Source: Schmidtea polychroa (lineage: Eukaryota). Taken from it: a DNA stretch of 64,000 bases. A program made the translations under genes and the position numbers. The DNA is taken from contig CM097886.1 in the NCBI GenBank assembly GCA_044892525.1, forward strand, positions 114,514,001-114,578,000. The letters run 5' to 3'. The notes under the pieces were generated by a model. The model ran no database searches. It was not told the DNA's origin and worked only from the letters and a program-made list of their open reading frames with translations. Shown here in pieces: positions 21,191 through 64,000 of this stretch; position 1 is the stretch's first letter, and the number at the start of each line of letters is the position of its first letter.

Positions 21191-21751
21191 TCGTCTAATT
21201 TCTTCCCTTTTCCTTTCTAGGTTCCTTTTTAGTTCAATTTGTAGAAAATCTTGTTCGTTTCCTTGTTGGTGACTTTGTTGTTGCTGTTGTTGATTTCTTC
21301 CTTCTATCTCCCGGTATTTGCGAATCCACTTCTCCATCTCTTCACTGTCTCGTTGTTTTTCCTTTAATTGGTAGTTTAATTTGTTTATGGTCACTTGGCG
21401 TTCTTCCGCCTCGGTTTTCCAGTAGTCCTCAATTACCTCCTCTGCTTTAATACTTGCCCTTTCTTTCCATTATTCTCCCGCTATCTTTTCCCAGTTTTTT
21501 TCTCGCTTCCTTTGTTCATGAAGCCATTCGTTTTCTTCTTCTATATCTCTTTTTACTTCCCCCAACGTTTTACACTCTTTCTTTAACACCTTTATCATTC
21601 TTCAGTCTTCCAGGTATTTGTTTATTAATCTCCCATTCTCGCGCTTCTCTTCCCCTAACTCCTCTTTTAGCGTTTGTGTTTTTGTTGTTTCTGCTTCGAT
21701 TTCTCCTTCTTCTACGTCACTCGTGATTTCTATTATTTCCTCGATCTTCAT
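21190..21751 (-). pseudogene. Accessory coiled-coil ORF of copy 1 (internal stop, truncated by N2)
   Basis: MKIEEIIEIT... is an E/K/R-rich frame continuing through a stop at 21602 into the 21394 ORF. It is preceded by attatag|atATG. Confidence 0.6.
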
Positions 21752-23183: not shown

Positions 23184-24559
23184 CTACTCGGTTCTGCCTT
23201 TTCCCTCTCTTCTCACATTCATTTTTATATATATTGTGTCATTCCTGGCCATGACTTCCACCTTTTGTTGCAAGATGAACTTAGGCGCTCCCGTTGCTGC
23301 ACCTTCTTCTTCAAGTGGTCTTTGGTTGGCTAATTGGTTGCCCGTTGCCTTGAAACTTTGTTCGTGGATGCTTTGGTCATTCATTATTGCGATATCGATT
23401 TTCGCCTGAAATGGCCATTCTATTATTTCGTCGTGTTCCCCTTTACATACTAGGAAGAATACTGAGAAGTGTGTTCCCAATCCTATTCCATCTCCGTTGG
23501 GATATACCTTCATTTTCATTTTGTATCCGTTCTTCCAGGAGAGAAATGCGGGGCTGGTTATCCTAGTATCTTCTCCGATTTTTGCTTTTCGTATCTTTTC
23601 TTTCACTCCCGTAATTTTCCATATGTAGGGTGTGGTTGGAATTACTTCGTTTAGATTTATTTCGGTTACTTTTTGACGGAGCACCTTGGCTTTCCATTCG
23701 GTTTATTTGCTTTTTTATGTTTGCTCGAGCTTCCTCAAACGCTTCTCTTTCTTCTAGTAATTCCTTTACCAATGCTTTCAATGAGGTTGTTTCTATCCCC
23801 ATTTGTTGTACTTTCTCTTCGTTTTCTTGCAACGCAATTGACCACATTTCTGCGTGAGTTGATACGTTTTCGGTTAGGTGTTGTGGTAATTCCTCTCGAT
23901 GTAGTAGTTTCTGACAGCCCCATTTACCTAGTACGCATATCATTCTTTTCTTTTCACATTCTTTTAGGTGCTGGGCTATTTTTAGGGTTTCACCTTTGTT
24001 ACATCCATTCGGACATTCCCCGCAGAATTCCGCGCATATTTTTTTCCTCCTGTACGTTGTGGTGTTTGAGGGTTAGGTTTTTCCACGTATCTACTTCCCT
24101 GCAGTATTCGCATCTTTCTAACCTTTCTTCACATTGGCTTTGATGTTCTTTTTCTTCGCTAGCTCGTATTGTTTTATGGCACTTGCCGCACTGGCCGACT
24201 CTGTACATACATTCCCCCATATGTTGCTTTACCTTCCATATTGATCCTTTCCATTCGCTTGGGGTATTTTTACATCCCAGATTAGTATTTAGCATATCTT
24301 TTACTGCGGCCTTATCTTCATTTGTATCTTCTAAAGTTGATATCAGGGTCTCTTTACATTTTGGGCACCACTGTGGTCTGTTTTTTATCGTTTCTTTTAT
24401 ACATTCTTTGCATAATCTGCATCCGCATTGGGTTTGGTGGGGTTCTTTTAGCAACTTTTCACATATTCCACACATGACGTGTTTGTGTATTCTGATAGTT
24501 GTGGAATTTCTGACTAACTCGATGATCTCGTTAAATTCCTCTCTTCGTTGTCTATCCAT
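23184..24559 (-). pseudogene. Intronless TRAF homologue carried by the retroelement (RING, TRAF zinc fingers, coiled coil, MATH); disrupted
   Basis: RING CGICEKLLKEPHQTQCGCRLCKEC...CPKC; zinc fingers HMGECMYRVGQCGKC and HQSQCEERLERCEYC; MATH SPAFLSWKNGYKMKMKVYPNGDG...GTHFSVFF...GEHD...EWPF. Split by stops near 23999 and a frameshift near 23670. No introns are needed to join the pieces. Confidence 0.9.
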
Positions 24560-24643
24560 ATCTACAATTAGGTACATATAGTCTTTATCGCTACAGATTC
24601 GATATTTTATTTACAGTTATTTACATTGTAATTTAGGTTTTGT

Positions 24644-25951: not shown

Positions 25952-28900
25952 CTAGACATACATCTTCCTAGGATGCACCTTTCTTTTAGATCCCACTCCT
26001 CTTTTAAATCCCACTGCTCTATCTATTATCTGCCTTGACATATAGATGCCTGCGTAGTTAGTCTTGGATACTATACTATCGCATTTGGTGGTTTCTTTCT
26101 CCTTGATAAATCTCATACCTAGGTCCGGATCGTCGGTGATTAGTGCCGTTGGTGTTTTTTGCGTTGAGAGTCTCTTTTCTCTGGGCGATGGTGGCACTGG
26201 TTTTCCATTTCTCATTCGTACTTTTCCATTTCCATCCTCGTCATCTTCGTTCTCATAAATTTCTCCCTTTACTTCATTAAACAAAGCACTTTTTAACAGC
26301 TGGAGTCGGCATTTTTGAGTGTTAGCTTCATATATTATGGTTGATACTCCCGTCTTGCATACGTTTTCCGTAGCTCTACACGCTGGGTTGGTTTTCATCT
26401 GATAATTATTGGCGTCAAATTGCGCTTCGTATTCTTTTAATTCAACCGTATAGGACTCGATTACTACCACTCCCGATATCACCTCGCCTCGGATTGTATA
26501 TGTACCTCCGTTGCACGATCCATCTGATGATTTTACTTTTCCGGATACATAAACACTTTCGGTTTTAATCATTCCGGTTTGTCCGTGTATTGTCACTCCG
26601 TTATGCATTTTCATCGCTCCGGTTCTAAAAAGCTCTTTACAGTCCTCTCTTTGTATTGGTACGATTTCTTAATCCAATCCGGGTAGTATGAGAGTCGAGT
26701 ACGAATATTGTCCACAATAATATGCGAGTACCTTTTTTGATACTACGCATTCCTTTGCTTGCGTTCTGATGAAATCTGATTCTTGATACACATGGTAGGT
26801 GACTTTTGTTTTTACTGTGTCCAATTTGTTGGGTGACGCCTGCCTACATTCTTCTATATCTCTCAATGAGTATTTATCTCTCATTACCATATTATCGCAA
26901 TCATAGATGGTGAAGCCCGTTGCTCCACTTGTGCATAGCATCCATATCATCATGGTCATCATTAGCGAATTTATTGATGCTTTTCTACTGGCTGGGTCTT
27001 TCATTGGTAATTCCCATTCAAGCTCGTTCAGCAACTTCTTCAATCTGACTTGCATTGACCTTTCCTGTTCGTTTTTTCGTGGTGCTTGTATGAGTCGTTT
27101 CCATCCTCCTGCTCGGATAATGTGTGGTTCAATAGTATTCTCTATGATTGCCACTGTCATTTCTACGTGGTTTGCAAATTGTTTATTGGGTATTTACCTC
27201 GCAGCTAATCCCATTAAATTGTACATTAAATAAGTTATTACCACTAGATGATGTTCGTCATCGTTTGCATTTGTTGTGAGCTGTTCAATCACTCTCTTCG
27301 TTTCATCCCAATCTGTTTTGGTGGTTTTGGTTTTCTCTTTGATTAGCTTTGGGATTATCCCTGATACGATGTGCCATAATTGTCTAGCTTCTACGCTGGC
27401 TACCTTTCGTTGCCACAAGCGTCTGAGTTGCGGGTTTGTTATTATTAACATATCTTTGATTAATTCTCGTATCCATTTTTCTCCTCTTTCGATCGTTGGT
27501 TGGGTTTCCTTTAGATCCCATACTATTTTGTCTAACTTTTCCAATCTGACTTGTCCTTGCTCTTGCTTTAGCTGTTCCTTAGTTTTGAACTCGGGCTTTT
27601 CTCCTTGTCTCTTAGGTCTTCCTTTTGCCCGTTTTTCCATCATTGTCCCCGCTTCTCTCGTATTCTCGTAATTCGGATTTCTTTCATTATCTGTTCTGGG
27701 CAATGAACTGTCGTTATTTCTCAGCCATTCATTCCATTCATCTATTATTTTATCGGTTTGTCCTTCTGGGGTTATTCTTGTCGATTCTTTTTGTTTCCTG
27801 AACTGTCCATCCGTTTCGGTTTCCGTAGTATCGTCGATGATTTCTTCGATGTTTAGTTTTGTTGGTTGTTGATAACTCGTTGATGGTTGGTTTGTAGTCC
27901 ACATTTCTGCTCCTGTCGGCCATCTTACTAATATCGGCGATCTTTCCCCTGGTTCATCGTTACTATCTTCTAGGATAATCTCTTCCACTCCTTCAGTTTC
28001 ATTGGATTTACTTAGTGCCTTGTTCGGGCTTGGAGTACTGAGACTACCTTTTGTTGGTCTATCATTTTTACTTTTCCTTTTTAACGGTTTTCCCAATGTT
28101 TCTGCCATGGTTAATACATTTGTCTCTTCCAACCTCATGGGTGTTATTCCAACGTCGGCATTATCGTCTAGTGATTTTCCTTGTAGTTGTAGATGGAATG
28201 GAGTTTCGTATGCTAATTTCTTTTTTAATTCCCTGATTTTGGTGGTTGGGTGTAATTCTACTTCCTCAACATTCTTATCTGGGTATTTGATTCGAATTCG
28301 ATATCTCTCTTGGGTGTCCTGTGACCATTCATGGTTACGCCACTTCCCGATGATTTGCTCCAGTTGTTCCGGGTACCATTCGTTGTATTGTCGGTATTCT
28401 TCTATAGTTTTTACTATCTCTCTCAAATAATGGATATTGTCCGATATTTTTAGAATGAAGTTGGCCAATGCTATCACTTGCCTTTTTTGGTTCTTTGTCC
28501 CCGTCTCTAAGATATCGCCTAGGTGTTTATATCTCTCTCTCTCTTCCCGATCTCTCGCCTCTTTCGCCTCTTCGCCGTCTATATCGGCGTATTCACGTTC
28601 CTTTTTTCTCATTGATTGAATATGTCTGGCTTCGTGTTCACTTTCTGACGTGACGTCTGTCTCGCTTTCTTCCTCTGATGTTTGTTCTATTACTTCTTCT
28701 TCATATTCTGGAGGTTCGTCTTCTTCCTCCTTTGGTTCTTCATCCATCTCCTCGATTTCTGTTTCTATGAGGATTCCCCTCTTAATTTCCCATACTTTAT
28801 TTTCCGCATTCCACGCCCTTTCCCATGGGGTTCGTCTGCAGGATCTGGTGCTTAACTTCGTTATTTTTCCTTGTAGTTCCTTTTCTCTTAACCATTTTTG

Positions 28901-35029: not shown

Positions 35030-35483
35030 GGCAGGGGAGATATCACAACAAAGGTAGATGGAGTCTTTGGACGTCATTATGAACGCTCACCGTGGCCTCC
35101 TACTTCTCCCATTCCGTATCGGCGAGTAACTCATCCAAATCAGAGAACTCGGAGGCGTTCTCCTCCCAGGTTACTCCGGTGGCTGAAATAACTCGTGCTG
35201 GGGGTCCGGTAGTTAGGTCTACGGTCGCGTGAGAATCGTTAATGCTAGTTGGATTTGGCAGGGGAGATATCACAACAAAGGTAGATGGAGTCTTTGGACG
35301 TCATTATGAACGCTCACCGTGGCCTCCTACTTCTCCCATTCCGTATCGGCGAGTAACTCGTCCAAATCAAAGAACTCGGAGGCGTTCTCCTCCCAGGTTA
35401 CTCCGGTTGCTGAAATAACTCGTGCTGGGGGTCCGGTAGTTAGGTCTACGGTCGCGTGAGAATCGTTAATGCTAGTTGGATTT
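35030..35483. repeat. 227-bp tandem duplication inside the 5' LTR
   Basis: 35030-35256 is repeated at 35257-35483. The 3' LTR has a single copy. It duplicates the 3' end of the LTR ORF. Confidence 0.93.
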
Positions 35484-36076
35484 TCCGTTGAAGAGACGTT
35501 CGGCTTTGTAGATGCACGCTCACGCTGTCTCTTTTTGCGTTCAGCACGTGACAGTTGCCGACGCTTAGGCTTTGAGGAGCTGCTGATGACGAGAGGCAGG
35601 GCGGAGGTAGAAACGATAGATGGAGTCGTTTTGCTGTTGCCGGTAAAGATCATGTCGGCTGGCTTGGGCGAGAGCTGAGTCTCTATGCACCCTCTGCAAG
35701 GCTTTCTAGACGGTGACGACGACTTTGACGAGGTGTCGTGGTGCCTTGGGAAGAGCTGATCGGCTTCGCCTATAGGAATTTGGACAATTTGCCGGGTGGC
35801 GGCTGCCTGGATATAGACTTTGTGCAGCGCCTCAGACTGCTCCTTGATTAGACTTCTCTGGGCACGGCTCTCAGAGATTAGAGCGTCCCGGCAATGCTCA
35901 CTACGATGGAGCTTCTTCTGGGTCTCTTTCATCTGAGCGGGACTGAACCACGTCCCCTCTAGCTCATCGATCTTTCTTTTGTATTTCCCAATCTGGGTTT
36001 GTAAGTCCTTGATGATGGCGTTTTTGTCCGAGCAAGAAAAACAAGGACGTAACGCAGGCTTGGCAGTTGGTATCAT
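35327..36076 (-). CDS. LTR-encoded ~250-aa protein (CxxC, coiled coil, basic NLS-like segment, acidic tail)
   Basis: Intact ORF; ATG at 36076 follows the acceptor tttgcctttatag. The N-terminal ~85 aa differ from copy 2 at only about 7 residues despite many third-position changes. Confidence 0.82.
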   Translation of the reverse strand: MIPTAKPALRPCFSCSDKNAIIKDLQTQIGKYKRKIDELEGTWFSPAQMKETQKKLHRSEHCRDALISESRAQRSLIKEQSEALHKVYIQAAATRQIVQIPIGEADQLFPRHHDTSSKSSSPSRKPCRGCIETQLSPKPADMIFTGNSKTTPSIVSTSALPLVISSSSKPKRRQLSRAERKKRQRERASTKPNVSSTENPTSINDSHATVDLTTGPPARVISATGVTWEENASEFFDLDELLADTEWEK

Positions 36077-38112
36077 GATAACTATAAAGGCAAATGTGAG
36101 ATGTGGAACATACAAGATTCAATTTTAAAATATGGACTCGATTAGCTGGCTATTCGCGGGTATTCACCGAACACCAAGAAAAAACTTATTTTAACATCCA
36201 AATCTGTTACTTAGATTCTTACAGCAAAATTCAACTTAAACATATATTGTCGATTTGACGAATGCGAAAAAAAAGGATGGTGAAATTTCCCATGTTGGTG
36301 AAACGATTTTAATTCGCAGCTCTCCCTTTGATTTATTCAATTAAGTAGTTACGCAAGTAAGTTCATTGGAGATTGATATTCAATTACTACCCTGGGCTCG
36401 TATTCACCATTATCCATTTCAAAATTCCTATGTCGTTATTTAAAGAATTTGTTTATTTCCATTCAAACACTCGGTGTTATCGTTTACAATTTGCAGTGAT
36501 TAGTTATTATGCGTCACGTGCAAGGATCGCACACTCTATTTACCATGAGTATGTACAGCGGCGACGATTATCCTTATCACTTAGTTCACTACGCACGATC
36601 GTCGCTTGACCCGAACGGAGATTGATAGTAGATAATCGATCCTGCGAATTCTAATATCTGTTGTTATCATTGGTTGCTCACACTACTTAGCCTGTCATGA
36701 TATGAAAATCTACCGGTCTAACATCTGCGAATCGACGGCTTACGAGATTCACTAGCCAACATACTTATCTACTAGCATTCGTCGGGGTGAGAATTCAAAT
36801 GCATACGTCCTGTGTCAGAACAGTTGTGTGTTAATTATGCAATCTCCCATTCATATTCGGTACAGATGTCACCAACCATGAGTGGATATCGTTCAACAGG
36901 AGTTTGTGCACTAGCTCGGGTGACGTAGAAAGCTTTGGATATTATCTCACTGTCCGCAAATTCACGCTCGTCTACAATGTTGGAATTAATTGCTGTAATT
37001 CGAAAATTCCTTTATGTTGTGATGCTTCAAAATAAAAGAAAATCAAATGATATCCTCGAGCCGTGTTCCCGGGAAGATATTCCGAATGCGATGCAGAATG
37101 GACACTTATTCAGATAGTAGGAATTTATTTCCTAACTGTATAAAATAAAATGTTAAAGTAACTGTAGTCTTCCGTTTTAATCCATTTTCGTATTATGTCA
37201 CTTATCTGAATGCCAAAAAACATAAATTCTCGACTCTGGCTTATTAGCGAAATTTGTTCATGAAATTTAATGCTGGAGTGTCGTAGATGAGTCTACTCTA
37301 AGTGTGGTAGTGAAGATCAAGATTCGGATTTTCAGATAAGTGGGACTTTCGAATGATGAGATGTGACGTTGTGAAATGATGAGAAGTGTAAAATTTGCAT
37401 TTTCCCCAATCACTGTGAAGCATATACATGACTCCCCAAAATTTCGGAATCTGTTACTGAAATCAATAAGATATCCTTCTATGAATTTTATGTCACCTTC
37501 AGCGATTGGACCCGTGAAGAAGCCTCCACATTTCGGCCCAATCTAGCTGCGTGATTGAAATACTCCATGTCCACCGGCTGAGCTCCCGAAGGCACCTCAC
37601 GCCATGACATGGAGTATCTCAACTCCACGTGTCTCATTAAATTTAATTCAATCAAATAATACTTTATGAAATAAAAACATCCAAATTGTTCGATAATAAT
37701 AAATTTATTATAAAATAAAAATGTACTTTAACCAAATAAATCGTTTACCTTATTAAATCATTTATGGGACCAAACGAAGAGAAAATTAAAACTAATTTAA
37801 GAAAACTTTTAATCATTCATTAAATAGGTGCAATTACCATTAACTTCAAAGAGATGTAAAAAAATCATAATAAATAGAATCCTGCTTACGCTTGAGTTAG
37901 GCTGAATCGCAATAATGCTCGTGGTCAAAATGAATCGGCTGTCTCTGGTTCTTTAAATCCTTCTGGTTATATCTCAGTTACTAGTTGAATTGAATTATCG
38001 AGTCGCTCGTGAGTTTAGGTTCGCTAATATTTCTGATGCTGGAATTAGTCCTGGTAAGCCGTAGTCGTTTTCCTATGAAAATTTTGATTAAACAGTAGTT
38101 GGTAGAATTGGC

Positions 38113-47969: not shown

Positions 47970-48300
47970 TGTTGGGCTGAATCGAAGGGTAGCTGGGAAA
48001 TTAGGTCGAATTTAACTAAAGTAAAAATAAGAAATAAAATAAATAGATTGACGAATAAAATAGAATAGAACATAAGAAAAACAATAATTAGAAATAAGAA
48101 TTAAAACAAAAAAATATATAAAAATAAGAAAAATTAAAATAGGACAATAGAATGACAGAAAATAACGCAAAATATAATAAATAATAAGGAAATTAAGGAA
48201 AATAAATAAAAACATAATTTTAATAAAGAAAATAAGAAGAAATAACTCTAAAACAAGGAAAATAAATTAAATTAATAAAATTAAGCGGTACTCAATTCTG

Positions 48301-48388
48301 ATTGGTCCGCGCAAACAAAAAATTAATATATAAGCAGGCATTAAAATCATAATAATTACAGTTAATCTAACCACCTCAATAGGTAAGT
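48301..48388 (+). promoter_or_regulatory. LTR promoter and splice donor
   Basis: ATTGG at 48301-48305, TATATAA at 48327-48333 and AG|GTAAGT at 48383. Confidence 0.7.
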
Positions 48389-50662
48389 AAAGTTTAAAAT
48401 AATCACAGTTAATCTAACCACCTCAATAGATCCATTCTACGACGAAACCGCAATTAAACAATCAATCCACAGCAACTCACGAGGACTATTCCGGAATCCA
48501 AGAAATTTCAGCTGAATCTAGATAATTTCGAACATTTATTACTTCGACACAGTACCCCTTTTCGACTCAGCCTATACCTCTATTAAACACTCGGTAAGGA
48601 TCTTTTGATTTCATAATTTGAATTTTAAAGTAATAGTTATGCATATGATTTAATTATAATTTTAATTTAAAGAACTTGTTTTCTTTTCGTTTGATTTCGA
48701 ATACTTGGTGTAATTTAACGATTTAGTATTTAACAATAAATGATTTGCTATGAATGATTGATTTCTAGGAATTATTGACTTTTATGAACTGTTTTAATGA
48801 GTTATTATTTAATGCCATTCAAATTTTCGAGAAACGTGGCGTTGATATACTCTAGTGTCATGGTGTGAGGTGCCTTCGGGAGCTCCACCGGTGGGCCTAG
48901 GGTATTTCAATCACGCAGCTGATTCGGGCCGTAATGTGGGGGCTTCCTCACGGGTCCGTCGCTGAAGGTGCGACTAAATCCTATAGGAAAATGTTGCCAG
49001 AAAATTGGTAGTCGTATAGCGATGGAAAATAGAGATGTAGGAAGAAACGTTCAGAGAGTTTTTATGTATTCGCGCAGTGATTGAGGGTGTCACACTATCG
49101 TCTCAAGATATCGTTTCTACTAAGCCCAAATTTCCTCTATCGCTCTAAAGCTCTATGTAGGTTGCTCATCGAGAGTCGTTCAAATGCTATAGGTGACATA
49201 TCTTCGATGCTCGTATGTTTCACTCGAAATTTATACCTACTATGTTTTATGGCCTTCCGTGTTATTATTTTCCTCGTCTACGTGTTCTCTCAAAGATGTA
49301 GCTGCAGGGGATTACAGAAAATAAGTAGTCTCGGATGAGCGTTAGAATTCCATGAACAAGTTGTCTCGCATAAAATTTTGAATTACGTAAAACGGGTTAC
49401 TTCAACTATTTTTGAATTGTATAAAATGATTTACTTCAATTGATTTTAGAATTATATAAAGGGATTAACTTCCACAAATTTTTCTAATTACATAAACCGG
49501 TTAGTGCCAAATAATCTCAAGAGTAAAACGAAATCAAATCGAGTCAAAAAATATATTTTTTTTTTACAAACCAATCTAACATGATAATCCTTACCTAGTA
49601 AATATAAATTACCCGTGTTTCATGGAGTTGATAATCCGGCGAGGATAGGTAGGAAATCTCCAAAATATCGGGAACGGATCAATAAACCGCATTTGAGGAG
49701 TTGAGAAGTTCCCCCTGGGGGGCAAATTATATCCAACTCTTGCGATACCGAGAATCATAATTTTTCCAGCATTTCCGTGAGAATTAGTATGACATCATCA
49801 TGAGCAAGGAAATGTGAGCATCTGTGCAGTGGGTTGATCGAGATAGTAGCCAGAGAACATGCCAGCATGTAAACAGTTGAGGGCACCAGTTAGTCATTAG
49901 GAGTGGAATTAAGTATGAGAAATAAAAACTTGCATACGTCACCCGTTTTCAGACACACTACAGTAGCTAATCACGGTGTGTAGATTCACACCGACTTGTA
50001 CTCATAACAAACCAGACCGGACGTGTCAGCTGGAATTTTTGGGTTATCAAATTAAATCACTCGCAGTCATTAGATTCCCACTGGTCGGAACTAATAGCCA
50101 ACTGTCAGACTGATTTTGTCTACTTAGTAGGATTAATTTAGTTATTATCTCATGTTGAATAATTTGTCGCCTATCATAAATAAATAATTAAAAATTTTTT
50201 TTTAATGTCTTCCCGTTCATCATAAATGAACTAATTAAGAATAATTTATGGATTTCTATTCACCCTAAATAATTAATCTAAAATTAATCGACCTACGTAC
50301 AGGATACATTCATCGAAACGATTTGTTAGGAAAAGTCGGCAATGTAATTCAACTCTCTTCAAACGTTAATTACTAACTTCAAGCAATTTAGATAACCGTA
50401 GTTTCCTCGACCTAGAATTCCTCTCACCAGTAGTAATACCTCTCCTTACTTGTGCAAAATCGTGCTAGACTGATTTATTTTCTTATAATTAATGACCCAA
50501 AGGGAACGAGGACCCATAGCGCAGTTGAATTTCTTTGGCTGATACACCCATTCTTGTCTATGAAACCAACTATGATCAGTAAAATATAAATGTGACCAGA
50601 CGACGACCTTCTAATTGATTTGATTTGTTGTTCATTTCCATCTTTTCTTGCAGTCACCCAAG

Positions 50663-51406
50663 ATGTTACCCAATTCCAAGACCATTCTCAGACCTTGTTT
50701 CTCTTGTTCAGACAAGAATTCAATCATCAAGGATCTGCAGGCCCAAATCGGAAAGTACAAGAGAAAAATAGACGAGTTAGAGGGGACATGGTTTAGTCCT
50801 ACCCAGATGAAAGAGGCTCAGAAGAAGCTGCACCGCAGCGAGCACTGTCGAGATGCGCTAATTTCCGAAAGTCGGGCGCAGAGAAGCCTAATAAAGGAGC
50901 AGTCGGAGGCGCTGCACAAGTTATACGTCCAAGCAGCAACCACTAGGAGAATCGCGAAGATCCCAATTAATGAAGCCAGTAATCTTTTTCCAGCGCACCA
51001 CGAGATCTCGGGCGGGCCTTCATCTCCACTTGGGAAGTCCTGCCATGGGTGCGTGGAGACCGAGCTCTCTCCCAGTGGTCCAGACGTTGTATTCACCGGA
51101 ACTAATAAAGTGCAGCCAAACACCGCATCGTCCTCAATCGTGCAAACCCCAACAGCTTCAAAACCTAAACGTCGGCAACTGTCGCGCGCCGAACGAAAAC
51201 GAAAGCAACGAGAGCGGGCTTCCATCAAACGGATTCTACCATCAACCGTCACCCCAGTCGACGGCAACAGCAATCCAATAGTAGTCGATCTAACGACCGG
51301 AATCTCAGGGCGAGTCATCTCCGCCGCCGGGGTAACATGGGAAGAAAACGCCGCCGAATTCTTTGATTTAAACGAGTTACTCGCCGACTCGGAGTGGGAA
51401 AAATGA
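50663..51406 (+). CDS. LTR-encoded 247-aa protein, copy 2
   Basis: Intact ORF after the acceptor tcttttcttgcag (50653), with AATAAA at 51543-51548. Homologous to 35327-36076. Confidence 0.82.
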   Translation: MLPNSKTILRPCFSCSDKNSIIKDLQAQIGKYKRKIDELEGTWFSPTQMKEAQKKLHRSEHCRDALISESRAQRSLIKEQSEALHKLYVQAATTRRIAKIPINEASNLFPAHHEISGGPSSPLGKSCHGCVETELSPSGPDVVFTGTNKVQPNTASSSIVQTPTASKPKRRQLSRAERKRKQRERASIKRILPSTVTPVDGNSNPIVVDLTTGISGRVISAAGVTWEENAAEFFDLNELLADSEWEK

Positions 51407-51974
51407 GAATTGCTCCGTAAACTGGCCTCATCTTCTAGAGATACCTGGACATCTTCTGACATCATTGTTTACCCTTGTGTTTTCCCTATTCTTAGGAATT
51501 TTGGTATATAAGTGTTCAATGTACTTGTATAATAATTCTGACAATAAACCATTCTCGTCTATATATGTGTTTTTGTTTATCTTAAAATAGTCGATCTGAA
51601 ATTGGTGAATAACATTGAGAGTCGTAGAAAATGAGGAGCATTAGTCAGTTGGCAACCCCAGCTAGGAACCTTGCGATGGGGTGATGGAATGATTAGACGT
51701 AAGTCCTTCTATCGGCAGTCAGGGTTGGGAAGTCGACGCCTCAGTAAGGAGTAGTCCGAAGGAGCTGGCTCACCTGCTTACTGGCGTCTCGCCGGCATAG
51801 CACAGTTCCAACGTGAAGCAATTCACGGGTGCTATGTTGGAATGTAGGTTATGTGCGGGTCCTGCTCGGCGATGACAAAACGAAGGACGAGCGAAATCGA
51901 TGTGGGCATTCATCCTCTAGACTGAAAGCTGCACTAAAAGGGGTCATCCGAGTAGCTACCCGCAACATAATTTT

Positions 51975-51992
51975 TGGGGGCTCAGCCGGGAT
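51975..51992 (+). promoter_or_regulatory. Primer binding site, tRNA-Pro type
   Basis: TGGGGGCTCAGCCGGGAT. Confidence 0.88.
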
Positions 51993-52300
51993 TTAGATTG
52001 AAATTTCCATTGACTAGTGCGAACTTGACTGGGATTTATTATTGAAATTTTGTCGAATAGTGTGAATTCACCGGGATTAGTGATTTTAATTGACTGGCGA
52101 ATGCAAATTGACTAATGCTTATCGAATCTTATTATAAAATCACGATTAGAAAATAATAAAATTAAAGATATAAATAAAGTAACTTTAATAATGGAGAAAT
52201 AAGATAAAAGTAAAATAAAGTATAACGATTTAAAAGGAAAATGTTTGATGAAACAACCACTAATTAGTTATGTATGACTAAAACATTTTTTTTAATAGAC

Positions 52301-52786
52301 ATGACGGAATTCGTGGACCAGATACAACAACTAATCAACTTCATAAACATCGAGAATGACTCCCTTAAAACGCTGACACAAAAGAGAGAAAGAATTAACA
52401 TCATACTACTCCAAGCAATCGGGCAAACCCCAGTCGTCCCCAACCACATGTTATTAGCCGCAGGACTAAGTCACCCAGATGGGAAGATAAACCCTGAAAC
52501 CGTGTATCAATGGTATCAAGAGAGATTGAACCACCCAGCATTAAATCTTGATTATCAACGTATAAAAGATCCATTAAGTACCATATCAGATACAATCGAG
52601 CGAAAAATACAAGAAAAACTGACCCTACTACGAACTTGTCTTGCTTGTAAACTTCGTCCTATTCGCGTACTGTTCTTGCCGTGTGGACACCTCAGTCACT
52701 GCGAAGAATGTGTGAACAACTTAAAACGATGCACGATATGTAAGAATGAGATAAAAGAAACTCATATGGTTTATTATGGTGAATGA
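52301..52786 (+). CDS. IAP/MDM2-type RING protein, copy 2
   Basis: Intact; CLACKLRPIRVLFLPCGHLSHCEEC...CTIC...HMVYYGE. Preceded by ttttaatag|acATG. Confidence 0.88.
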   Translation: MTEFVDQIQQLINFINIENDSLKTLTQKRERINIILLQAIGQTPVVPNHMLLAAGLSHPDGKINPETVYQWYQERLNHPALNLDYQRIKDPLSTISDTIERKIQEKLTLLRTCLACKLRPIRVLFLPCGHLSHCEECVNNLKRCTICKNEIKETHMVYYGE

Positions 52787-53649: not shown

Positions 53650-53974
53650 AGGCCTAGAAAAGCGAGAGATAGCAGTTAAGCTACAATGAGATAATATTTA
53701 AATTAATAGTGAAATGGAATATTAAAGCTAGCTAGAAACAAATTGAATGTAATTACGAAAATTTGAGTTTAGAGAGGAAATAAACGAGCTCGTGGAAAGG
53801 ATGATAGGATTATAATGAAAAAGGAAGGGGAAGAAGGAAATGAATTAAAGAGATAATGGAAAATAAAGAATAGGTGAAATGATGATAATGAGTAAAGAGG
53901 AAAGTAACTAACTAATTAAAGGGATCCCAGTGAAGTAGAGAAACTCTACGAAATATTTTTGTTTTTGGTTAAAT

Positions 53975-56900
53975 CGGGCGAACTAGCAAATAGGAAACAA
54001 AGAGCGAACGAATCGATAACATTATATGCCAGTGAATTACGAAGATTAGCGAAGAAAGCAATGAATGGGAAATTACTCGAGGAAAATCTGATCGGCTATT
54101 TCATAGAGGGATTACGCCGAGAGGATGTAAGAGCCTCAGTAGGTTGTCAAATGTGCAAAACGTTAGAGGAAGCCATAGACTGGGCTACAAGATGCGAGCT
54201 CCACCTTCCAGCTCAAATGAATATTATGCAAGAGGATGGGAGGATAGCGACAGCAATAGCGAAAGCGGATAACGGAGATAACAACAATCAGGAACCGAAA
54301 ATGAATCAATTTATACCAGGAGCGCATCAAATTTTCAAACCACCACAAGGACGATCAAATGGGAATAATGGTAATCGTAACAACTTGAATAATGAGAACA
54401 ATTTTAATAATCGACGAAATATGAACGATAACAAGCAGTGCCGAACATGTGGTAAACCAGGACACTGGGACAGAGATTGTTATAGAAACGCAAATTGTAA
54501 TCGTTGCGGACGGCGTGGACATACGGAAAATAGATGCCAGTTGAAAGGTTGTTTTAACTGTGGTCAGCCAGGTCACATCTCCAGAGACTGCCGAGAAAGG
54601 GGCCAACCACAACGACCACCACAACGAAATACTAATTACATGTCGAATCCGCAACGACAAAGTAACCCTAGTGAAGGAAAACAAATGAACGTTATGCAGG
54701 AAATCTCACAAATGAAACAGATGATGCAACAAATGATGAGACCAAGGCAAGAACCAGCACCACAACAAACCCAGAATATACGTATGATGAGGAGTACCGA
54801 AAATCTCAATAGTTATGAAGTACATCAACATGTACAAGAATGGCAAAGACTACAGGCCGAGGAAGAGAGGATAAAACAAGAACGCAACCAACAACGACAA
54901 GAACAACCATTGCGAATAAATATGATGAAGTTAGTAAAAGACATGAAAAGCCAGTACTGCTACAATTACGGGAAAAACCCAAGGGTAGTACCCATGACTG
55001 AACCAGAGAAGGTAAAAGAAACAACAACGGAAATGAAAACCGAGAATTCAACCACGATCTTAAAAGGGAACCAGAGAATTCAGAAAATATTCTGGAAAAA
55101 GATAAAAGATAAAATCGAAAAAGAACATAATAAAGCGAAAACCGAGACAGAAGATGAAAATAACAAGAGCAAGGAACAAGCCAGTCAACCAAACCGCCAA
55201 ATGTTACAAGAACTGGAATCTGAGGAAACAACGATATTCAAAAATAAAAAACTAAAGAGAGTACCTAGGATGAGAAATTTGCGAATCAACATGATGAAAA
55301 GGACGAAAGGTACGTCGTCCTCAGACGAAGACTATGTGAGCAGTTTGGGTGGAGAAATACTACAGCTAAATGAAATAAGCGAACCTCCAAAAGGGGAAAT
55401 CGAAGAAGAAGAAGGCGAAAGCGAGATAACCAGCGGAAGTGAAGACGAGGATATAGAAATAAAGTTGAGAAAAGAGAGGGAGGAAGCGATAAAACAAGTA
55501 GCTGAAATACTCCCAGTAGTAGTGAGGAACCAAGAGTTCATCGATATAATACCATTCAGACGATTCGTGCAAAAAGTGATGAAATTGGAAAGAAACGAGA
55601 AAGATTTAATACCAAACGAGAAAAAATCAATTATAAAAAAATATATGGAAAAAATGAAGCAGGCCGATACCACGCGGTATGTAATAAAAATCGGAACGAG
55701 TATAGGACTTGAAAGAATGTGGATTAAAAATACAGTCACCGACGAACTTTTCGATTGGATACGAGAACATTTGGGAAGTTCGAGAAAGAAAGAATATCTG
55801 TATCAATACCAAGGAGAACAGATCAAACCAGATATGCACTTAGTGGATGCACTAATATGGCCAGGAGAAACGCAAATACTGAAGTTGCACAAAGAAAAAC
55901 AACCAGCTAACCTGTACGATTGGGCTAAAGATGCCAAGGCGGAATATGATTTTAATATCAAATTGAAATTAGAACAAATAAAGCAATGTACTCTGAGACG
56001 AAACCTGGACAAGCTGATCAAACAAATTCAAGAACAAGTGGAAGACAACTGGGATTTACTCATCACCAGACGAGCCCCAGCCATGTACTAACTAATGAGC
56101 CGGTTGCGAGATACAGAATTGCTCCGAATGAGTGATTGGAGAACCATAAATTTGATTCCCAAATATGGAAGGTTAAAAGAAACCCAGCCGCAGAGGTTGG
56201 AAATAACCATATGGTTACCGAACGAAGAGAAACGACGAATAAAAATAAGCAATCAGAGTACAGTGGATGATTTGGTATCAAAGATAAACCAAGAGATAAC
56301 GGAAAAGGTACGTAGCGAAAGTAGTGATGGTATGGTGGATGATGTAGTCATGATGTACGATAAAATAATATTACGAGCGGAAGACGACACCTCGTTGAGC
56401 GAAATGGGTATGTGAGACGATCATCAGATAATCAGGATAGTACCAATGGATGAATTTCGAACAAGAGATGTAACGTATCAAAAAGAAATACGAGACCGGA
56501 TGAAAACGTTATATCAAAAATCTACAGAAATAATTGAAATTCACCAACGATGGTTAAAAGAAAAGGAACTACAAGGAAAAATCACGAAACTAAGCACCAG
56601 ATCCTGCAGACGAACCCCATGGGAAAGAGTGTGGAATACAGAAAATAAGGAATGGGAAATCCGGAAAGGAATCTTCGTAGAAACAGACATTGGGGAGACA
56701 GAAAGTGAATCGGAGGAAGAAGAAGAGGAACCCCCAGAATATGAAGAGGAAGCAAGGAGACAGATCTCAGATGATGAAAGCGAGACGGACGTCACGTCAG
56801 AAAGCGAAAATGAAGCGAGACATATTCATGCAATGCGGAAAAAGGAACGTGAATATGCCGATATGGACGGCGAGGAAGCGACAGAAGCAAGAGAACGAGA

Positions 56901-58528
56901 AGAGAAAGAAAGATATAAACACTTAGGCGATATCTTACAATGGGAGCGAAAAATCAAAAACGTCAGGTAGTAGCATTGGCTAATATCATCTTAAAGACAT
57001 CAGAAAATATCCACAATCTGAGAGAAATGGCGAAAGTAATAGAGGAATACCGGCAATATAATGAATGGTATCCAGAACAGCTAGAACAAATTATTCGAAA
57101 ATGGAGAAATCAAGAGTGGGCACAAGACACCCAGGAGAGGTATCACATCCGAATCAAGTATCCGGACAAGAGCATTGAAGAACTAGAAGTGCATCCAACA
57201 ACGAAAATTAGAGAATTAAAAAAGAAATTAGCATATGAAACTCCATTCCATCTGCAACTATTCGGAAAATCACTAGACGATAATGTAGACGTCGGAATAA
57301 CACCCATGAGATTAGAAGAGACTAATGTGTTAACAATGGCGGAAACGTTGGGAAAACCGTTGAAAAGGAAAAGCAAAATTAATAAACCAACAAAAGGTAG
57401 TTTGAGTACTCCAAGTCCAAACAAAGCCCCAAGTAAATCTAATGAAACTGAAGAAGTTGAAGAGATTATCCTCGAAGATAGTGGCGACGAACCAGGAGAA
57501 AGATCACCGCTATTAGTGAGATGGCCAACAGGAGCCGAAATATGGACCAACAACCAACCATCAACAAGTTATCAACAACCAACGAAACTGAACACCAAGG
57601 AAATCGTCGACAATACTACGGAAACCGAAACGGATGAACAATTCCAGAAGCAAAGAGAACCAACAAAAATAACACCGGAAGGTCAAACTGATAAAATAAT
57701 AGATGAGTGGAATGAGTGGCTGAGAAATAACGATAGCTCATTACCCAGAACGGATAACGAAAGAAATCCGAATTACGAAAATACCAGAGAAGCTGGAACG
57801 ATGATGGAAAAACGGGCAAAAGGAAGACCTAAGAAACAAGGAGAGAAATCTGAGTTCAAAACCAAGGAACAAGTAAAACAAGAACAAGGACAAGTTCGAT
57901 TGGAAAAGTTAGATAAAATAGTATGGGATCTAAAAGAAGCTCAACCAACGATCGAAAGAGGAGAAAAATGGATACGAGAATTGATCAAAGATATGTTAAT
58001 AATAACAAATCCACAACTTAGACGCTTGTGGCAACGGAAAGTAGCCAGTGTAGAAGCTAGACAATTATGGCACATCGTATCGGGGATAATCCCAAAGCTA
58101 ATCAAAGAAAAAACGAAAACTACCAAAACGGATTGGGATGAAACCAAGAGAGTGATTGTACAGCTCACGACAAATGCAAATGATGACGAACATCATCTAG
58201 TGGTAATCACTTATTTGATGTATAATTTGATGGGATTAGCTGCAAGGAAAATACCTAATAAACAGTTCGCAAATCACGTAGAAATGACCGTGTCAATCAT
58301 AGAAAACACTATTGAACCCCATATTATCCGTGCCGGAGGATGGAAAAGACTTATACAAACGCCACGAAAAAATGAGCAAGAAAGGTCGATGCAAGTTAGA
58401 TTGAAAAAGCTGTTAAATGAACTAGAATGGGAACTACCGATGAAAGATCCAGCAAGCAGAAAAGCATCAATAAATTCGTTAATGATGACTATGATGATAT
58501 GGATGTTGTGCACAAGTGGAGCAACGGG
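53975..58528 (+). pseudogene. Copy 2 Gag, CCHC x3, Ubl x3, Bcl-2-like region (Gag N-terminus deleted)
   Basis: Zinc knuckles at 54439-54591. Stops at 56089 and 56413 and a frameshift at ~56940. A deletion of roughly 1.3 kb relative to copy 1 lies at ~53975. Confidence 0.88.
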
Positions 58529-60345
58529 TTTTACCATCTACGATTGTGATAATATGATAATGAGAGATAAATACTCATTGAGAGATATAGAAGAATGCAG
58601 ACAAGCATCACCCAACAAATTGGACATAGTAAAAACAAAAGTTACCTACCATGTATACCAAGAATCAGATTTCATCAGAACGCAAGCAAGAGAATGCGTT
58701 GTATCAAAAAAGGTACTCGCGTATTATTGCGGGCAATATTCGTATTCAACTCTCATACTACCCGGTCTAGATAAAGAAATCGTATCAATACAACGAGAAG
58801 ACTGTAAAGAGCTATTTAGAACCGGAGCGCTAAAAATGCATAACGGAGTGACGATACACGGACAAACTGGAATGATTAAAACCGAAAGTGTTTACGTATC
58901 CGGAAAAGTAAAGTCATCAGATGGGTCATGTAACGGAGGTACGTATACGATCCGAGGCGAGGTAATATCGGGAGTAGTAGTGATCGAGTCCTATACGGTT
59001 GAATTAAAAGAATATGAAGCGCAATTTGACGCAAATAATTACCAAATGAAGACCAACCCGGCATGTAGGGCTACAGAAAACGTATGCAGGACAGGAGTGT
59101 CAACTATAATCTATGAAGCTAACACGCAAAAATGCCGACTCCAACTGTTAAAAAGTGCTTTGTTCAATGAAGTAAAAGGAGAAATTTATGAAAACGAAAA
59201 CGACGAAGATGGAAACGAAAGAGTGAGAATGCGAAATGGAAAACCAATGCCACCATCTCCCAGAGAAAAAAGACTCTCGACGCAGAAAACACCAACAGCA
59301 TTAATTACCGACGATCCAGATCTAGGTATGAGATTTATCAAAGAGAAAGAAACCACCAAATGCGACAGTATAGTATATAAAACCAATTACGCTGGTATCT
59401 ATATGTCAAGACAAATAATCGACAGAGCAGTGGGAAAGATAGCAACGGAGGACGTAAAACTATACTTATATGCAAATAATAAAATGGATTTTTTTATTTC
59501 ATCGTGGACAAACGACCCTACAAAAAGTATATTACGATCTGATACAAAACGATTGTTCATTGAATAAAGAAATACTGAAAACAAAGCTAGCTATTGCGAT
59601 AACGCACCCAGATAACACGATGCCATCACTCCCATTACCAGACGGACATTTTGGTAGAATGGTAGGAAAAGTGATGTACACATACCAGTGTACCAAGACG
59701 TATGCACGAATGCCAGAAAAATCCATACTACCCGAAAAGAGATGTGCAAATGAATTAGAAATCCGCTATAAAGGACAAAATCGATTCGTTTCTACCCAAA
59801 TCTCTTTAACTGTTCTAATGCATACGGACCATTGTATGAAAGACCCGATGGGAAATGGATGATGTTACCGGGAAAAACCATATCCGAGGAGCCCAAGAAA
59901 TTTGGATTAATAGAACTCGCCACAGAGCTGGATTTCAAACCTATAGACGTGTCAAACGGTGGTATGTATTCCCCAGAAGATTTAGAAACAGCTCGGCTTA
60001 ACGTATTATTCCCAGCAAGACGAGAATCTATTTTGTCCAATATGGTAACAATAACTGGGGGAACGAATTACCAAATAGGCCCAAACTATGAACTACTGCT
60101 GTCACCAGACCATTTCCAACAAGCAACCTCAAATATGATGAAAGCAATGTGGGGAAGATTCTTAGTTTTTGGACAAATGATGGCCGGAATATTGGGGATC
60201 ATACTCATAATTCAGATCGTCAGAGTAATACTAACACAAATGTTAGCTTGTTTTGATATATACAAGCGGGAAAAGAAAGTTAACTGGAAAATGATAGTAG
60301 GCTTTCTACCATTTTTAGCTAAAACCATGGTATTACATGGTCACT
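58480..60345 (+). pseudogene. env: Envelope glycoprotein, class III (chuvirus G / herpes gB-like) type; two frameshifts
   Basis: Signal-like LMMTMMIWMLCTSGATG followed by FTIYDC...YSL..IEEC...YYCG.YSY...EDC...DGSC.G, a Cys pattern typical of chuvirus-like glycoproteins. TM segment [25 protein letters not shown] at ~60158-60245. Frameshifts at ~59490 and ~59800. Confidence 0.75.
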
Positions 60346-60839
60346 CAAAAGACATTCATCGGATAAAGCGATTGATCAAAATACTAACAAAGATTAAAGG
60401 AACCGACGAAGAAGTAGGCAGACGATTCCGGAAAGTAATGTACGATGAAGCAACAAGACGACAATTGAAAAAGAATAAGCCAAAATTTTTGGACCGATTC
60501 AGAAGTCAATCATCTAACAGCGATAGTGACGACGATGATAACGGGAACAATAAATGTCTATATCCAAACAGAAACCCAAACGAAAAACCAATGGAAACAG
60601 CACCGTATTGGGAAAAGGAAAAGACAAACACCTGGATCGCCAACGGAAGCTATATACCACCGGATATCGTGGGACCACAAGCCGCTTTGACCATGACACA
60701 GAATATGTATCCGCAATTACCGAGTCAACCCGGGATGCATTATATGCCAACACGACGTACCAAAAGTGTAGATCAAGCAGATGACGTAAGAACAATAGCA
60801 GAGATGAGTTTACCTGGAGGTCCAGCAGTAACAGTTATG

Positions 60840-63800
60840 ATTCAAATCAATGGTAAAGAAACCAATGCTATGATAGACACCGGAGCTAATGTATCAGCAA
60901 TAGCGATTAATCAAATTCCCAGTAAGCACTGGAAGGATATCGAATCAACAACAATCCACATCATAGCATGTAGTAAAGAAACAGTAGATGTGGTCGGAAG
61001 ATGGTGGACTACATTGAGATACCAGGACAACGAAATTGAAACGTATTTGGCAGTAATACCAAAACTTAGCGTACCAGGCATAATCGGAACGGATTTGATG
61101 CCAGAATTATTAAAAGAAGTGGTAATTGACTTAACAACCATGTGCCTAAAAGACAGAACAGGCAGAATATGCAAAATGAATGCCATAATCCGATGTCCAG
61201 AGAAAATTGTAGTACCAGCAAAATCGCAGATGATTTGTCAAATAAAAGTGGATACGGGTATGGAAGGAGAAGTTGTCTTCGAACCAAGTAAATCATTTGA
61301 AAAGCGACGAGAGTTACCCCTCGCCAGAGAAATAATAACAATAAACCCAGAAGGAGTGATACCGATCAACATCACAAATTTTGAAGAGGAAGACAAAATC
61401 ATCTATGAGAATGAAAAATTGGGAAGATTGACCCCAATGATGGACATAGAATTACCGAAAGTGACCAACGAGATGATCAAAGACGATGAATTATGGACAA
61501 TAGATAGTATGTTGTTGACGAATGATGAAAAGAAAAAATTGCACCGATTATTAGTAGAATATAAGGATATATTCGCCATCTCGGACCTAGATTTGGGTAC
61601 ATGTGATGTTACCCTGCATGCGATACCATTAATAGATGAAACTCCAATTGCGTTAAGACCATATAAACTAGCGGAAATGCAAAAAGGAATAGCTGAAGCA
61701 GAAGTACAAAAGATGTTAGACGCAAAAGTGATCGAACCAAGTTGCTCACCTTGGCAATTCCCAGTGGTCATGGTGAAAAAGAAAGATGGCACCCAACGAT
61801 TCTGTATCGATTATCGAAAGTTGAACGCAGTAACCAAGAGAGATACCTACCCATTGCCAATGAAATGTTACTCATGTTGCAAGGGGCAGCATATTTTACT
61901 TCTTTAGATTTAAAAAGTGGATACTGGCAAATTAAAGTCAAAGATGAGGACAAAGAGAAAACGGCTTTCACGTTGGGACGAGATCTATATCAGTTCAGAA
62001 AAATGCCATTCGGACTGACCAACGCACCAGCATCGTTTCAAAGGTGTATGAACTTTGTCACTCATGGAATCAAACAATGTATGGTATATATTGATGATTT
62101 GTTAATCTATTCAGCGACATTTGAACAACATCTGGAGGATATCCGAAATGTATTTATTCGATTACGACAATGGAAACTCAAGCTCAAACCGTCAAAATGC
62201 GACTGGTCAAAGGAAAAGGTCACGTTTTTGGGACACATAGTGTCAGCTAAAGGAAAGGAGCCAGATCCAAGAAACATTGAGAAAATAAAAACATGTCCAG
62301 CACCGAAAACTGTCACCCAAGTTCAGGAATTTCTAGGATTATGCGGATACTATCGCAAATTTATCAAAAATTATGCAGGAATTGCAAAACCAATCCAGGA
62401 ATTAGTAAAGAAAGACATTTCGTTCATTTGGGGGAAGGAACAACAAGAGGCGTTTGAAACGCTGAGAGACAAACTAATCGAAGCACCTATCCTCGTACAC
62501 CCAGATTTCAAGAAACCATTTCTATTAGCAACGGATGCAAGCGGGTACGCGGCAGGCGCGATTCTGGGACAATTAGACGACGAAGGTAAAGAAAGAGTAA
62601 TTGGATATTACAGTCGAACATTCAAAAAGCACGAGAAGAACTATTCGGTAACAGAACGAGAAGCATTGGCTATAATACAAGCAATCAAACATTTTCGATA
62701 TTTGTTATGGGGACATGAGATATGTATAACCACAGATCATCAACCATTAGTGTGGCTAGGGCAACATAAAGAAGCGTCCAGTAGACTAATGAGATGGGCA
62801 ATGCAGCTACAAGAGTATTCACCGTTCATAAAATTCAAAGCGGGAAGAGCGAATGCAAACGCCGACTGTATGTCAAGGTTTATTTTTCCAGATTTGGTAG
62901 ATCCAGAAATGCAACGTATATGCCTGATGGTAGCAGAAGACCTAGATTTCTGCCAATTACGAAAAGACCAACAAGAAGACGCAGAACTGAAACAAATTAT
63001 CGATTATGTAAAAACAGGAAAGACGGAGGTATATGCGAAAGACCAAAAATTAAAAGAACATATGGATAAACACCGACACCGATATATCATAGAGAAAGAT
63101 TGGTTGCTGATAATGGATGGGGAAAAACGATTAATGTGTATACCGGAAAACCGACGGAAAGAGTTACTAACGCAATACCACGATGGGAGATTGGGAGGAC
63201 ATATGTCATCAAAAAAGACGTTAGCAAGAATGAAACAAAAATATTTCTGGCCTACCCTAACGGAAGACGTAACCGAATGGGTGAAAAACTGCATAACCTG
63301 TGCAACAAGGAAAAACACTGGATCGAAATGGAAAGCACCTTTGACGCCAATGCCGGTACCAATAGAGCCGATGACAATGATATCAATGGATGTAGTTGGT
63401 CCATTGCCAGAATCGGATAAAGGAAACGTTTATATTTTAGTGATTACAGACTTTCTCACAAAATTTCCAGAAGCATTCGCGATGCCAGACCAAAAAGCTA
63501 AAACAATCGCAAAAATCTTGGTCGAAGAGATATGTTGCCGTTACGGGACACCGAAGCAAATCTTGACTGATCAAGGAACTAATTTTATGAGTGAAATAAT
63601 GAGTGAGGTAACCAATTACTTCAAAATCGCAAAATTGAGAACATCACCGTATCATCCTCAAACCAATGGGATGACGGAAAGATTTAATGGAACACTTATA
63701 CAAATGTTATCAAACTACGTCGACCGTCACCAACGAGATTGGGACGAATATATAAACCTATGTCTTATGGCGTACAGAATGTCGATTCACGCATCAACGA

Positions 63801-64000
63801 AAATGAGCCCATTCAAATTAATGTACGGAAGAGAATGTAACATGCCAATGGACCTGGAATACCAACCACCGATATCGCAATACATGGAGATAGATGATTA
63901 TGTTACGAAATTCAAGGAAAGAATGCAGGAGATTTGGGAAACTGCGGGATTAAACATCAAGTTCTACCAGGAAAGTTATAAAGATTTACACGATCGAAAG
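60840..64000 (+). CDS. pol: Pol: aspartic protease, RT, RNase H, integrase (one frameshift at ~61860; then open to the window end)
   Basis: MIDTGA (D at 60876); [14 protein letters not shown] and YIDD (62087-62098); TDAS (62534); HHCC (63179-63301); integrase D63389, D63569 and E63677 with D-35-E spacing. Gypsy domain order. Confidence 0.97.

Follow-up and report, generated by a model that had tools for sequence, protein, structure and literature searches.

The closest described relatives of the element considered here are the planarian Burro (GYPSM1) elements, giant gypsy-like long terminal repeat (LTR) retroelements which are 25-30 kb long and encode a single polyprotein of ~4,700-5,100 amino acids (aa), and for which Arkhipova & Yushenova (2019; PMC6431247) cite Jurka (2007) and Grohme et al. 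(2018). In Burro-2, -3 and -4 the presence of a BCL2-like motif is recorded, a Ubi/SUMO-like motif precedes BCL-2 in Burro, and the region between BCL2 and the protease was recognized as an Env that lies in frame between gag and pol and matches mononegavirus glycoproteins (PMC6431247). Here we describe a Burro-type giant Ty3/gypsy retroelement in a 64,000-nt stretch of Schmidtea polychroa DNA (GCA_044892525.1, contig CM097886.1, positions 114,514,001 to 114,578,000 of the forward strand; the whole stretch is 'the window' below, and positions are in its numbering unless a locus is named), in which a domain of predicted Bcl-2 fold (57945..58373, +; model residues 8-150) lies between Gag and Env, in frame with both, in the polyprotein. 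The Gag-Bcl-2-Env layout is real, conserved and already reported, and the finding adds support more than discovery because that layout is in print; a preliminary description of this DNA, which knew of no retroelement-encoded Bcl-2 homologue, was mistaken in view of the 2019 annotation (PMC6431247).

The order of domains follows that of Burro, with Gag, CCHC knuckles, ubiquitin-like and BCL2-like domains, in-frame Env, protease, reverse transcriptase (RT), RNase H and integrase, and ankyrin repeats and TRAF/MATH cargo are likewise shared. Unlike Burro1, the family to which the window element belongs (family A) lacks MATH within its polyprotein, and none of the open reading frames (ORFs) scanned contains a BIR; on the published description it is therefore not Burro1 itself. 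A second family of the same genome, family E, fits that description better, having both a MATH domain in the polyprotein and a BIR, the latter in a BIR-RING gene that forms a separate downstream ORF. Platyhelminth GAG-ENV-POL errantiviruses with an HSV/gB-type Env (HSV, herpes simplex virus), among them six S. mediterranea elements, are described by Chary & Hayashi (PMC13524379); the window element shares their gene order and gB-type Env, and by hand count the start of its Env is about half identical to that of Smed_errantivirus_5 (82 of 157 positions). The words Bcl, Burro and apoptosis are absent from the main text of that paper, and Bcl from its seven supplements.

Burro elements are also known for an anti-death cargo. 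The BIR-RING protein of Burro1 (B-IAP) is reported in PMC13465017, which refers to Lee et al. (2026, Dev Cell), to shield stem cells against caspase-mediated death, and Burro1 is transcribed once PIWI silencing is lost (PMC8532177). With its reported effect on stem-cell survival B-IAP offers a parallel to the element's Bcl-2-like domain, from which it differs in being a caspase inhibitor of another fold that acts at another step of the pathway. Our preferred reading, for which the case is somewhat better than even, is that the domain may be an endoplasmic reticulum (ER)-tethered Bcl-2-fold module favouring survival of the producing cell. PMC6431247 gives motif annotation only, with no fold test, groove analysis or junction reading; what is added here is a fold-level test in a family missed by Pfam, evidence that constraint on the domain matches that on Env, the observation that the glycine of Bcl-2 homology region 1 (BH1) is lost throughout the lineage, and a specific proposal for how a Gag-Env-Pol polyprotein would thread the membrane.

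Evidence for a Bcl-2 fold

The Bcl-2-like motifs quoted in the preliminary description were confirmed where it had placed them, within the ORF at 56919-59567 (+), which carries both the domain and the start of Env. An AlphaFold model built from 33 element sequences without templates (predicted local distance difference test, pLDDT, 72.7) places helices at ~57963-58007, 58050-58088, 58101-58121, 58134-58172, 58185-58244, 58257-58331 and 58341-58358, in a predicted bundle, with the hydrophobic helix 5 at its centre, that can be aligned with Bcl-2 proteins over the whole domain. When this model was compared with known structures, the check that had been suggested at the outset, all 42 PDB rows listed by Foldseek belonged to the Bcl-2 family, and in the viral library the herpesvirus protein BALF1 came first (E 2e-3), followed by other viral Bcl-2 proteins. 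In VIA-align the first 34 rows, among them each of the 26 with Z >= 8, were chains of Bcl-2 fold, and the first unrelated row had Z 5.6; the best match, Hydra Bcl-2-4 (6wgz), had Z 13.2 and a root-mean-square deviation of 2.6 with 137 residues aligned.

Profile searches support the same identity. A profile made from element sequences only matched Bcl-2-family chains in all 60 listed rows of 130 (best E 5e-5, Bcl-xL/Bcl-2), and did so again in all 60 listed rows of 115 when family B was left out (best E 8e-5), which places the homology to Bcl-2 proteins at the level of sequence profiles as well as of the predicted model. Against a profile of families B, C, D and F the window domain scored 24.8 bits, a score reached by none of 1000 shuffles and compared with 0.6 for the reversed sequence, so that the likeness is beyond chance.

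The same domain stands at the same place in five sister families (B-F), making six with family A. Family B came from a Pfam Bcl-2 scan, C and D from one for Env, E from one for BIR, and F through D; since C and D were found via Env, their matches to Pfam Bcl-2 (E 0.004-0.02 and 2e-5, respectively) are independent of any Bcl-2 search. Family B matches at E 3e-7 to 2e-6 and reaches 31.3-32.2 bits against PF00452, for which the curated cut-off is 31.4 bits, and family E has no Pfam Bcl-2 match at E <= 0.05. In the first alignment 17 of the 22 members matched Pfam Bcl-2 at E <= 1, the window not among them. Identity to the window domain is 34% in family E (E 4e-42) and 26% over 154 aa in family B, and in every sister family the domain ends in GGW, 48-76 residues before the YDC motif of Env. 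A profile search of 1.84 billion proteins gave ten matches at E <= 0.001, all of them singletons; six of the ten match Pfam Bcl-2 at E <= 0.05, in six a hydrophobic stretch and then Env's YDC start come after the domain, and one further match has Gag, ubiquitin-like and Bcl-2-like domains. The junction is accordingly common well beyond the window's own family, being found in six families and in six of these ten outside matches.

Several results weigh against this assignment. On its own the window domain gave no Pfam family at E <= 1, no PDB sequence match and no usable ESM Atlas match, and an AlphaFold prediction from the single sequence was poor (pLDDT 44.6); a profile of families A and E alone reached Bcl-xL only at E = 2; no Foldseek row in the PDB or viral libraries had E <= 0.001; and the aligner itself warns that helical bundles may reach Z near 13 through common arrangement. 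The PF00452 cut-off was missed by the window, which had no match, and by the unbroken family-A copy, with 13.9 bits. When families A and E were compared by hhalign with seven host-like Bcl-2 sequences, only 29 BH2 columns were matched, at a probability of 68%, and a word-seeded protein search with the domain, which is weak evidence, found none among 72 candidates of 119-380 aa and none among 513 of 381-2000 aa. A chance helical bundle carrying GGW would account for the silence of the single sequence and for the modest Foldseek values, and it is nevertheless largely refuted and very improbable: sister families match Pfam Bcl-2 independently, the profile that left the window's family out was matched by no shuffle, the whole-domain structural match stands far above unrelated rows, and a BCL2-like annotation had been published earlier (PMC6431247). 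Three routes agree on a Bcl-2 fold, which remains a prediction, and one in which we have very high confidence.

Compared with cellular and DNA-virus Bcl-2 proteins (Hydra Bcl-2-4, Bcl-xL, BHRF1, A179L, BALF1), the domain has in common the predicted helical bundle over 130-140 residues, the GGW of BH2 and a hydrophobic segment after BH2; it differs in its low identity to them (10-16%), in having neither NWGR nor a BH3 motif, and in being internal to a polyprotein, where its 'tail' runs on into a lumenal glycoprotein. In a tree of ten element and seven host-like domains (131 columns), built without intron-split host-like genes, the element domains lie together to one side of a branch whose support, 88/89, is not strong; long branches meet in this tree, and no donor can be named from it.

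The junction with Env

That the domain is fused directly upstream of Env, as first described, is true as to adjacency but understates the arrangement: in one unbroken natural copy a single frame holds Gag, CCHC, a weak Bcl-2 match (E 0.084), Env, protease and RT, so that the domain is internal to it. The helical core is followed by a linker (58371..58466, +) consisting, by the AlphaFold model and a charge count, of a predicted helix and then a short basic stretch, and by a hydrophobic stretch that is probably, to judge from its sequence, the internal signal peptide of Env (58467..58529, +), with a short hydrophobic core at ~58467-58511, a polar c-region and a predicted cut at 58529/58530. The Pfam glycoprotein model PF24664 begins inside this stretch (ORF residue 520 corresponds to profile position 3, and in family E the match starts at position 1), and for this reason the stretch likely came with Env. 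Net charge ahead of the hydrophobic core is +1 to +3 in all 33 rows, and small residues occupy -3/-1 in 28 of them. The best 11-residue hydropathy of the stretch is 2.05 in the window and 2.35-3.35 in the other families, and within the first 3,074 aa of the unbroken copy a value of 2.0 is passed by two stretches only, this one and the anchor of Env.

A different origin would be that the stretch began as the tail anchor of a captured Bcl-2 gene and was later reused for Env insertion. The hydrophobic segment follows BH2 at a spacing of 23-54 residues, as such an anchor might, and the spacing in family C is close to that in a host-type Bcl-2-like gene of this genome; we nevertheless consider this origin improbable, as the stretch aligns within the first 20 positions of a viral glycoprotein model and has the polarity of a signal peptide, with basic residues before it and small neutral residues after. 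The segment after BH2 has the build of a signal peptide and would be C-terminal, as a tail anchor is, only after cleavage.

The preliminary description had proposed that one segment serves both as Bcl-2 anchor and as Env signal. This is topologically plausible if the signal peptide is retained after cleavage, and it would point to the ER and not to mitochondria. By standard membrane biogenesis the polyprotein would thread the ER membrane twice, inwards at the signal peptide and outwards at the Env transmembrane segment, leaving Gag-Bcl-2 and Pol cytosolic and Env lumenal; signal peptidase would cut before 58530, the upstream product would end in the peptide, and the Bcl-2-fold domain would be left tethered by it to the cytosolic face of the ER. 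Whether the cleaved peptide stays as the anchor of the domain is a question on which we are evenly divided. Retention is disfavoured by a best 19-residue hydropathy of 1.27 in family A, which is weak for a lasting anchor; the -3/-1 rule is failed by five of the seven family-B rows; the cleavage site was a visual choice, made at a constant distance from YDC; and no basic residue follows the stretch in the window copy, while the tail of a host-type Bcl-2-like gene (locus L079) ends with Lys residues. Among titles and abstract openings we found no printed reading of this junction as signal peptide or anchor, although Grohme et al. (2018) or Lee et al. (2026) could contain one.

Conservation and selection

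The domain is under strong purifying selection. A second copy in the window (copy 1, domain and junction at 26912..27520 on the minus strand) differs from the one described above (copy 2) at 64 of 609 nt, with 59 silent and 4 replacement sites, and the protein is changed at only 5 of 203 codons. The near invariance claimed in the preliminary description is thus borne out, with the reservation that one of the five changed codons is a TAA stop (27194-27196) inside the domain. The ratio of non-synonymous to synonymous substitution (dN/dS) in the domain core lies between 0.017 and 0.039 in four family-A pairs out of five, silent sites being saturated in the remaining one, and is similar to that of Env (0.02-0.04); in the Gag-side spacer it is 0.08-0.22 in most windows of the comparison, two flanking ones being also low (0.01-0.02), and between pairs of sister families it is 0.08-0.34. 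In a genome search with the domain there were 708 candidates, of which 150 were scored; all of these were 92-100% identical, and hand counts gave ~59 with the 4,732-aa Gag-Env-Pol open frame and 7 with a stop inside the domain.

Constraint as strong as that on Env is also what might be expected of a matrix-like particle adaptor, in which the cleaved signal peptide would hold Gag at an Env-rich membrane. The foamy-virus Env leader peptide and flavivirus capsid anchors are comparable anchors. Such a role would suit the constant place of the domain just before the signal peptide, in the six families and in six of the ten outside matches, where other cargo varies (MATH is part of the polyprotein in family E and has its own ORF in family A, and a BIR was seen in E alone). 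The proposed particles and the contact with Gag, on the other hand, find no support in this analysis, and the fixed place is explained equally well by the need of any membrane function for an anchor; on balance we think an adaptor of this kind rather unlikely.

BH motifs and possible function

The BH2 match reported at the outset was confirmed. The motif (58320..58343, +) ends in a GGW at 58335-58343 that is invariant in all 33 aligned rows, and the first Trp of the W-x4-GGW pattern is kept in 21 of the 33, being His in family A. The NWGR signature of BH1 had been described as lost, and it is, though the first BH1 alignment was probably one residue out of register; the revised register, from the profile alignment, sets D-D-E-H (58182..58193, +) on N-W-G-R, and with it the Arg of family E falls on the BH1 Arg. 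The BH3 motif is defined as L-x3-G-D in helix 2.

For a role of the classical kind these motifs are unfavourable. None of the 33 rows keeps the BH1 Trp; the Gly is likewise replaced in all 33, by D or E in 31 and by N in two; the Arg position holds R or K in only nine, with His in the window; and no Asp occurs in the window's helix 2 (aligned-segment residues 43-66), so that the BH3 motif is absent. Classical BH3 binding is doubtful because the BH1 glycine is replaced in every copy, and the domain is a Bcl-2-fold homologue that is not filed as a canonical pro-survival member because its groove, with BH1 and BH3 lost, is non-canonical. The G138A mutant of Bcl-xL, according to a preprint (bioRxiv 10.64898/2026.06.23.733989), is impaired in Bax binding and keeps BAD binding; that an altered BH1 need not close the groove follows from the latter, and as applied to this sequence the G138A data may cut both ways for BH3 binding by the domain.

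Loss of N-W-G-R in all families, with a mostly acidic residue at the Gly position, would also fit a Bcl-2-fold scaffold by which innate-immune or stress signalling, and not apoptosis, would be blocked, possibly together with the TRAF-like and RING proteins of the element, which encodes a full TRAF-like ORF and a RING ORF. The poxvirus proteins A46, A52, B14 and K7 are Bcl-2-fold blockers of innate-immune or stress signalling. A52, A46, B14 and N1 appear among the structural matches from VIA-align, with Z 5.5-7.7 as against values up to 13.2 for apoptotic Bcl-2 proteins, and it is this difference, with the invariant GGW of BH2 and the retention of BAD binding by Bcl-xL G138A (bioRxiv 10.64898/2026.06.23.733989), that makes such a scaffold a possibility we hold only tentatively. 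Of about the same modest standing is a polyprotein module rewired from a captured Bcl-2, in which one signal peptide would launch Env and would also anchor an acidic-BH1 Bcl-2 fold that binds a new partner (host immune or ER proteins, or Gag) and not BH3 helices; it would be a counterpart of the poxvirus Bcl-2-like blockers, or a Bcl-2-derived matrix protein.

We return to the ER-tethered module that may favour survival. While the element is expressed the tethered domain would be likely to dampen host-cell death, probably by a route with no need for the classical BH1 Gly-Arg pair, and we lean slightly towards survival of the host cell as its job. The context is supporting, in that the element carries RING and TRAF-like ORFs and the Burro1-like family E a BIR-RING gene. 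If the domain does protect cells, Burro elements would hold two separate anti-death devices, an inhibitor of apoptosis protein (IAP) and a Bcl-2, as large DNA viruses do, and this would bear on the persistence of Burro in planarian stem cells; should its binding partner be another, it would represent a new use of the Bcl-2 fold.

Features of the element and its copies

The element is 28.6 kb long and runs from 47970 to ~12.5 kb beyond the right end of the window. Copy 2 has TG...CA termini to its long terminal repeats (LTRs) and a 4-bp target duplication, GTAT; the 5' LTR is ~4.0 kb (47970..51967, +), the 3' LTR ends ~12.5 kb to the right of the window, and the two are 99.6-99.8% identical. 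Near-identical LTRs are thus found together with several stops and frame changes in the polyprotein, and copy 2 is either a defective copy mobilized by a helper or one affected by assembly errors. Its stops and frame changes lie outside the Bcl-2-like domain, both upstream and downstream. As regards transcription and a possible spliced Bcl-2-Env message, contigs from runs that we presume, as a guess, to be of RNA origin span the stretch, and none of the 15 joints listed (of 48) came from them. Immediately 3' of the 5' LTR, at 51975-51992, is a sequence like a primer-binding site, which we take to resemble a tRNA-Pro site. Within the 4-kb LTR there is a 260-aa ORF of no known family (50624-51406, +), and a related ORF lies upstream of copy 1 (35327-36118, -).

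An upstream accessory ORF (52268..52786, +) ends in a C3HC4 RING (PF13920, E 1.2e-11), with no BIR found in it. Gag (53920..57944, +) comprises CCHC knuckles, a long spacer, a weak ubiquitin-like match (E 0.12 in the window copy versus 4e-4 in family C) and a basic GRP motif upstream of the Bcl-2-like domain; in copy 2 the Gag ORF is 53920-56091 (+), with a stop at 56089-56091 and a frame change near 56937. An internal start at the Met shortly before the GRP motif, considered for families A, B and E, was dropped when no support for it was found. Env (58530..60263, +) is a fusion glycoprotein of the class III or Monjiviricetes type (PF24664, E 1.6e-26 and 2.8e-19) with, by hydropathy, a C-terminal transmembrane segment at ~60153-60263; compared with the unbroken natural copy, its frame in copy 2 is interrupted near 59491-59498 and 59784-59790. 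Next come the protease, RT, RNase H and integrase (60834..64000, +, in ORFs at 59772-64000), and beyond the window come ankyrin repeats, the TRAF-like ORF, other ORFs and the 3' LTR.

The TRAF-like ORF (RING, TRAF zinc fingers, coiled coil and MATH) lies downstream of pol, at 23184-24610 (-) in the window and at L075:4049-5482 (+); that of copy 1 is frameshifted, and in copy 1 env is moreover missing its second half and pol is missing altogether. The region from pol to the 3' LTR contains several unannotated ORFs (L075:1650-3488, 5633-6730, 6851-7591 and 7623-8300, +), which are in some cases coiled-coil-like and in others contain hydrophobic stretches. In family E, the ORF adjoining the BIR-RING gene (L106:1220-2026) has a weak match to the N4BP1 KH domain (E 0.005).

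Other Bcl-2-like genes and neighbouring sequences

The genome holds further Bcl-2-like genes outside the Burro-type families. A short gene with an apparent intron before BH2 and a hydrophobic tail of its own occurs in many dispersed, near-identical copies (loci L046-L051, L059, L060, L079 and L080; for example L079:2543-2854, +), and a similar match is found at G000:C2:114493859, ~20 kb to the left of the window. At L079 and L080 it stands beside ORFs for a TBP-like protein, a Pox_A32 ATPase and an rve integrase, a context that looks like a Maverick/Polinton carrying Bcl-2 and TBP and would make it a second mobile Bcl-2 of this genome; no literature on a Maverick/Polinton-borne Bcl-2 was found by title or abstract opening. 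Another multi-copy gene (L053-L058; for example L053:1405-1860, -) is a single-exon Bcl-2-like ORF of 152 aa, scoring 32.5 bits in Pfam, with shared flanks and a TBP-like ORF nearby. A Bcl-2 gene whose BH1-BH3 motifs are complete is present in seven clustered, near-identical copies (L031-L037; G000:C4, 89.9-90.8 Mb), which are either a real expansion or an assembly duplication.

Elsewhere in the window, a non-LTR retrotransposon with zinc fingers, an Ulp1/C48 protease-like domain and an RT occupies 10744-16892 (+), and a probable second, partial copy of it lies at 17783-21272 (+).

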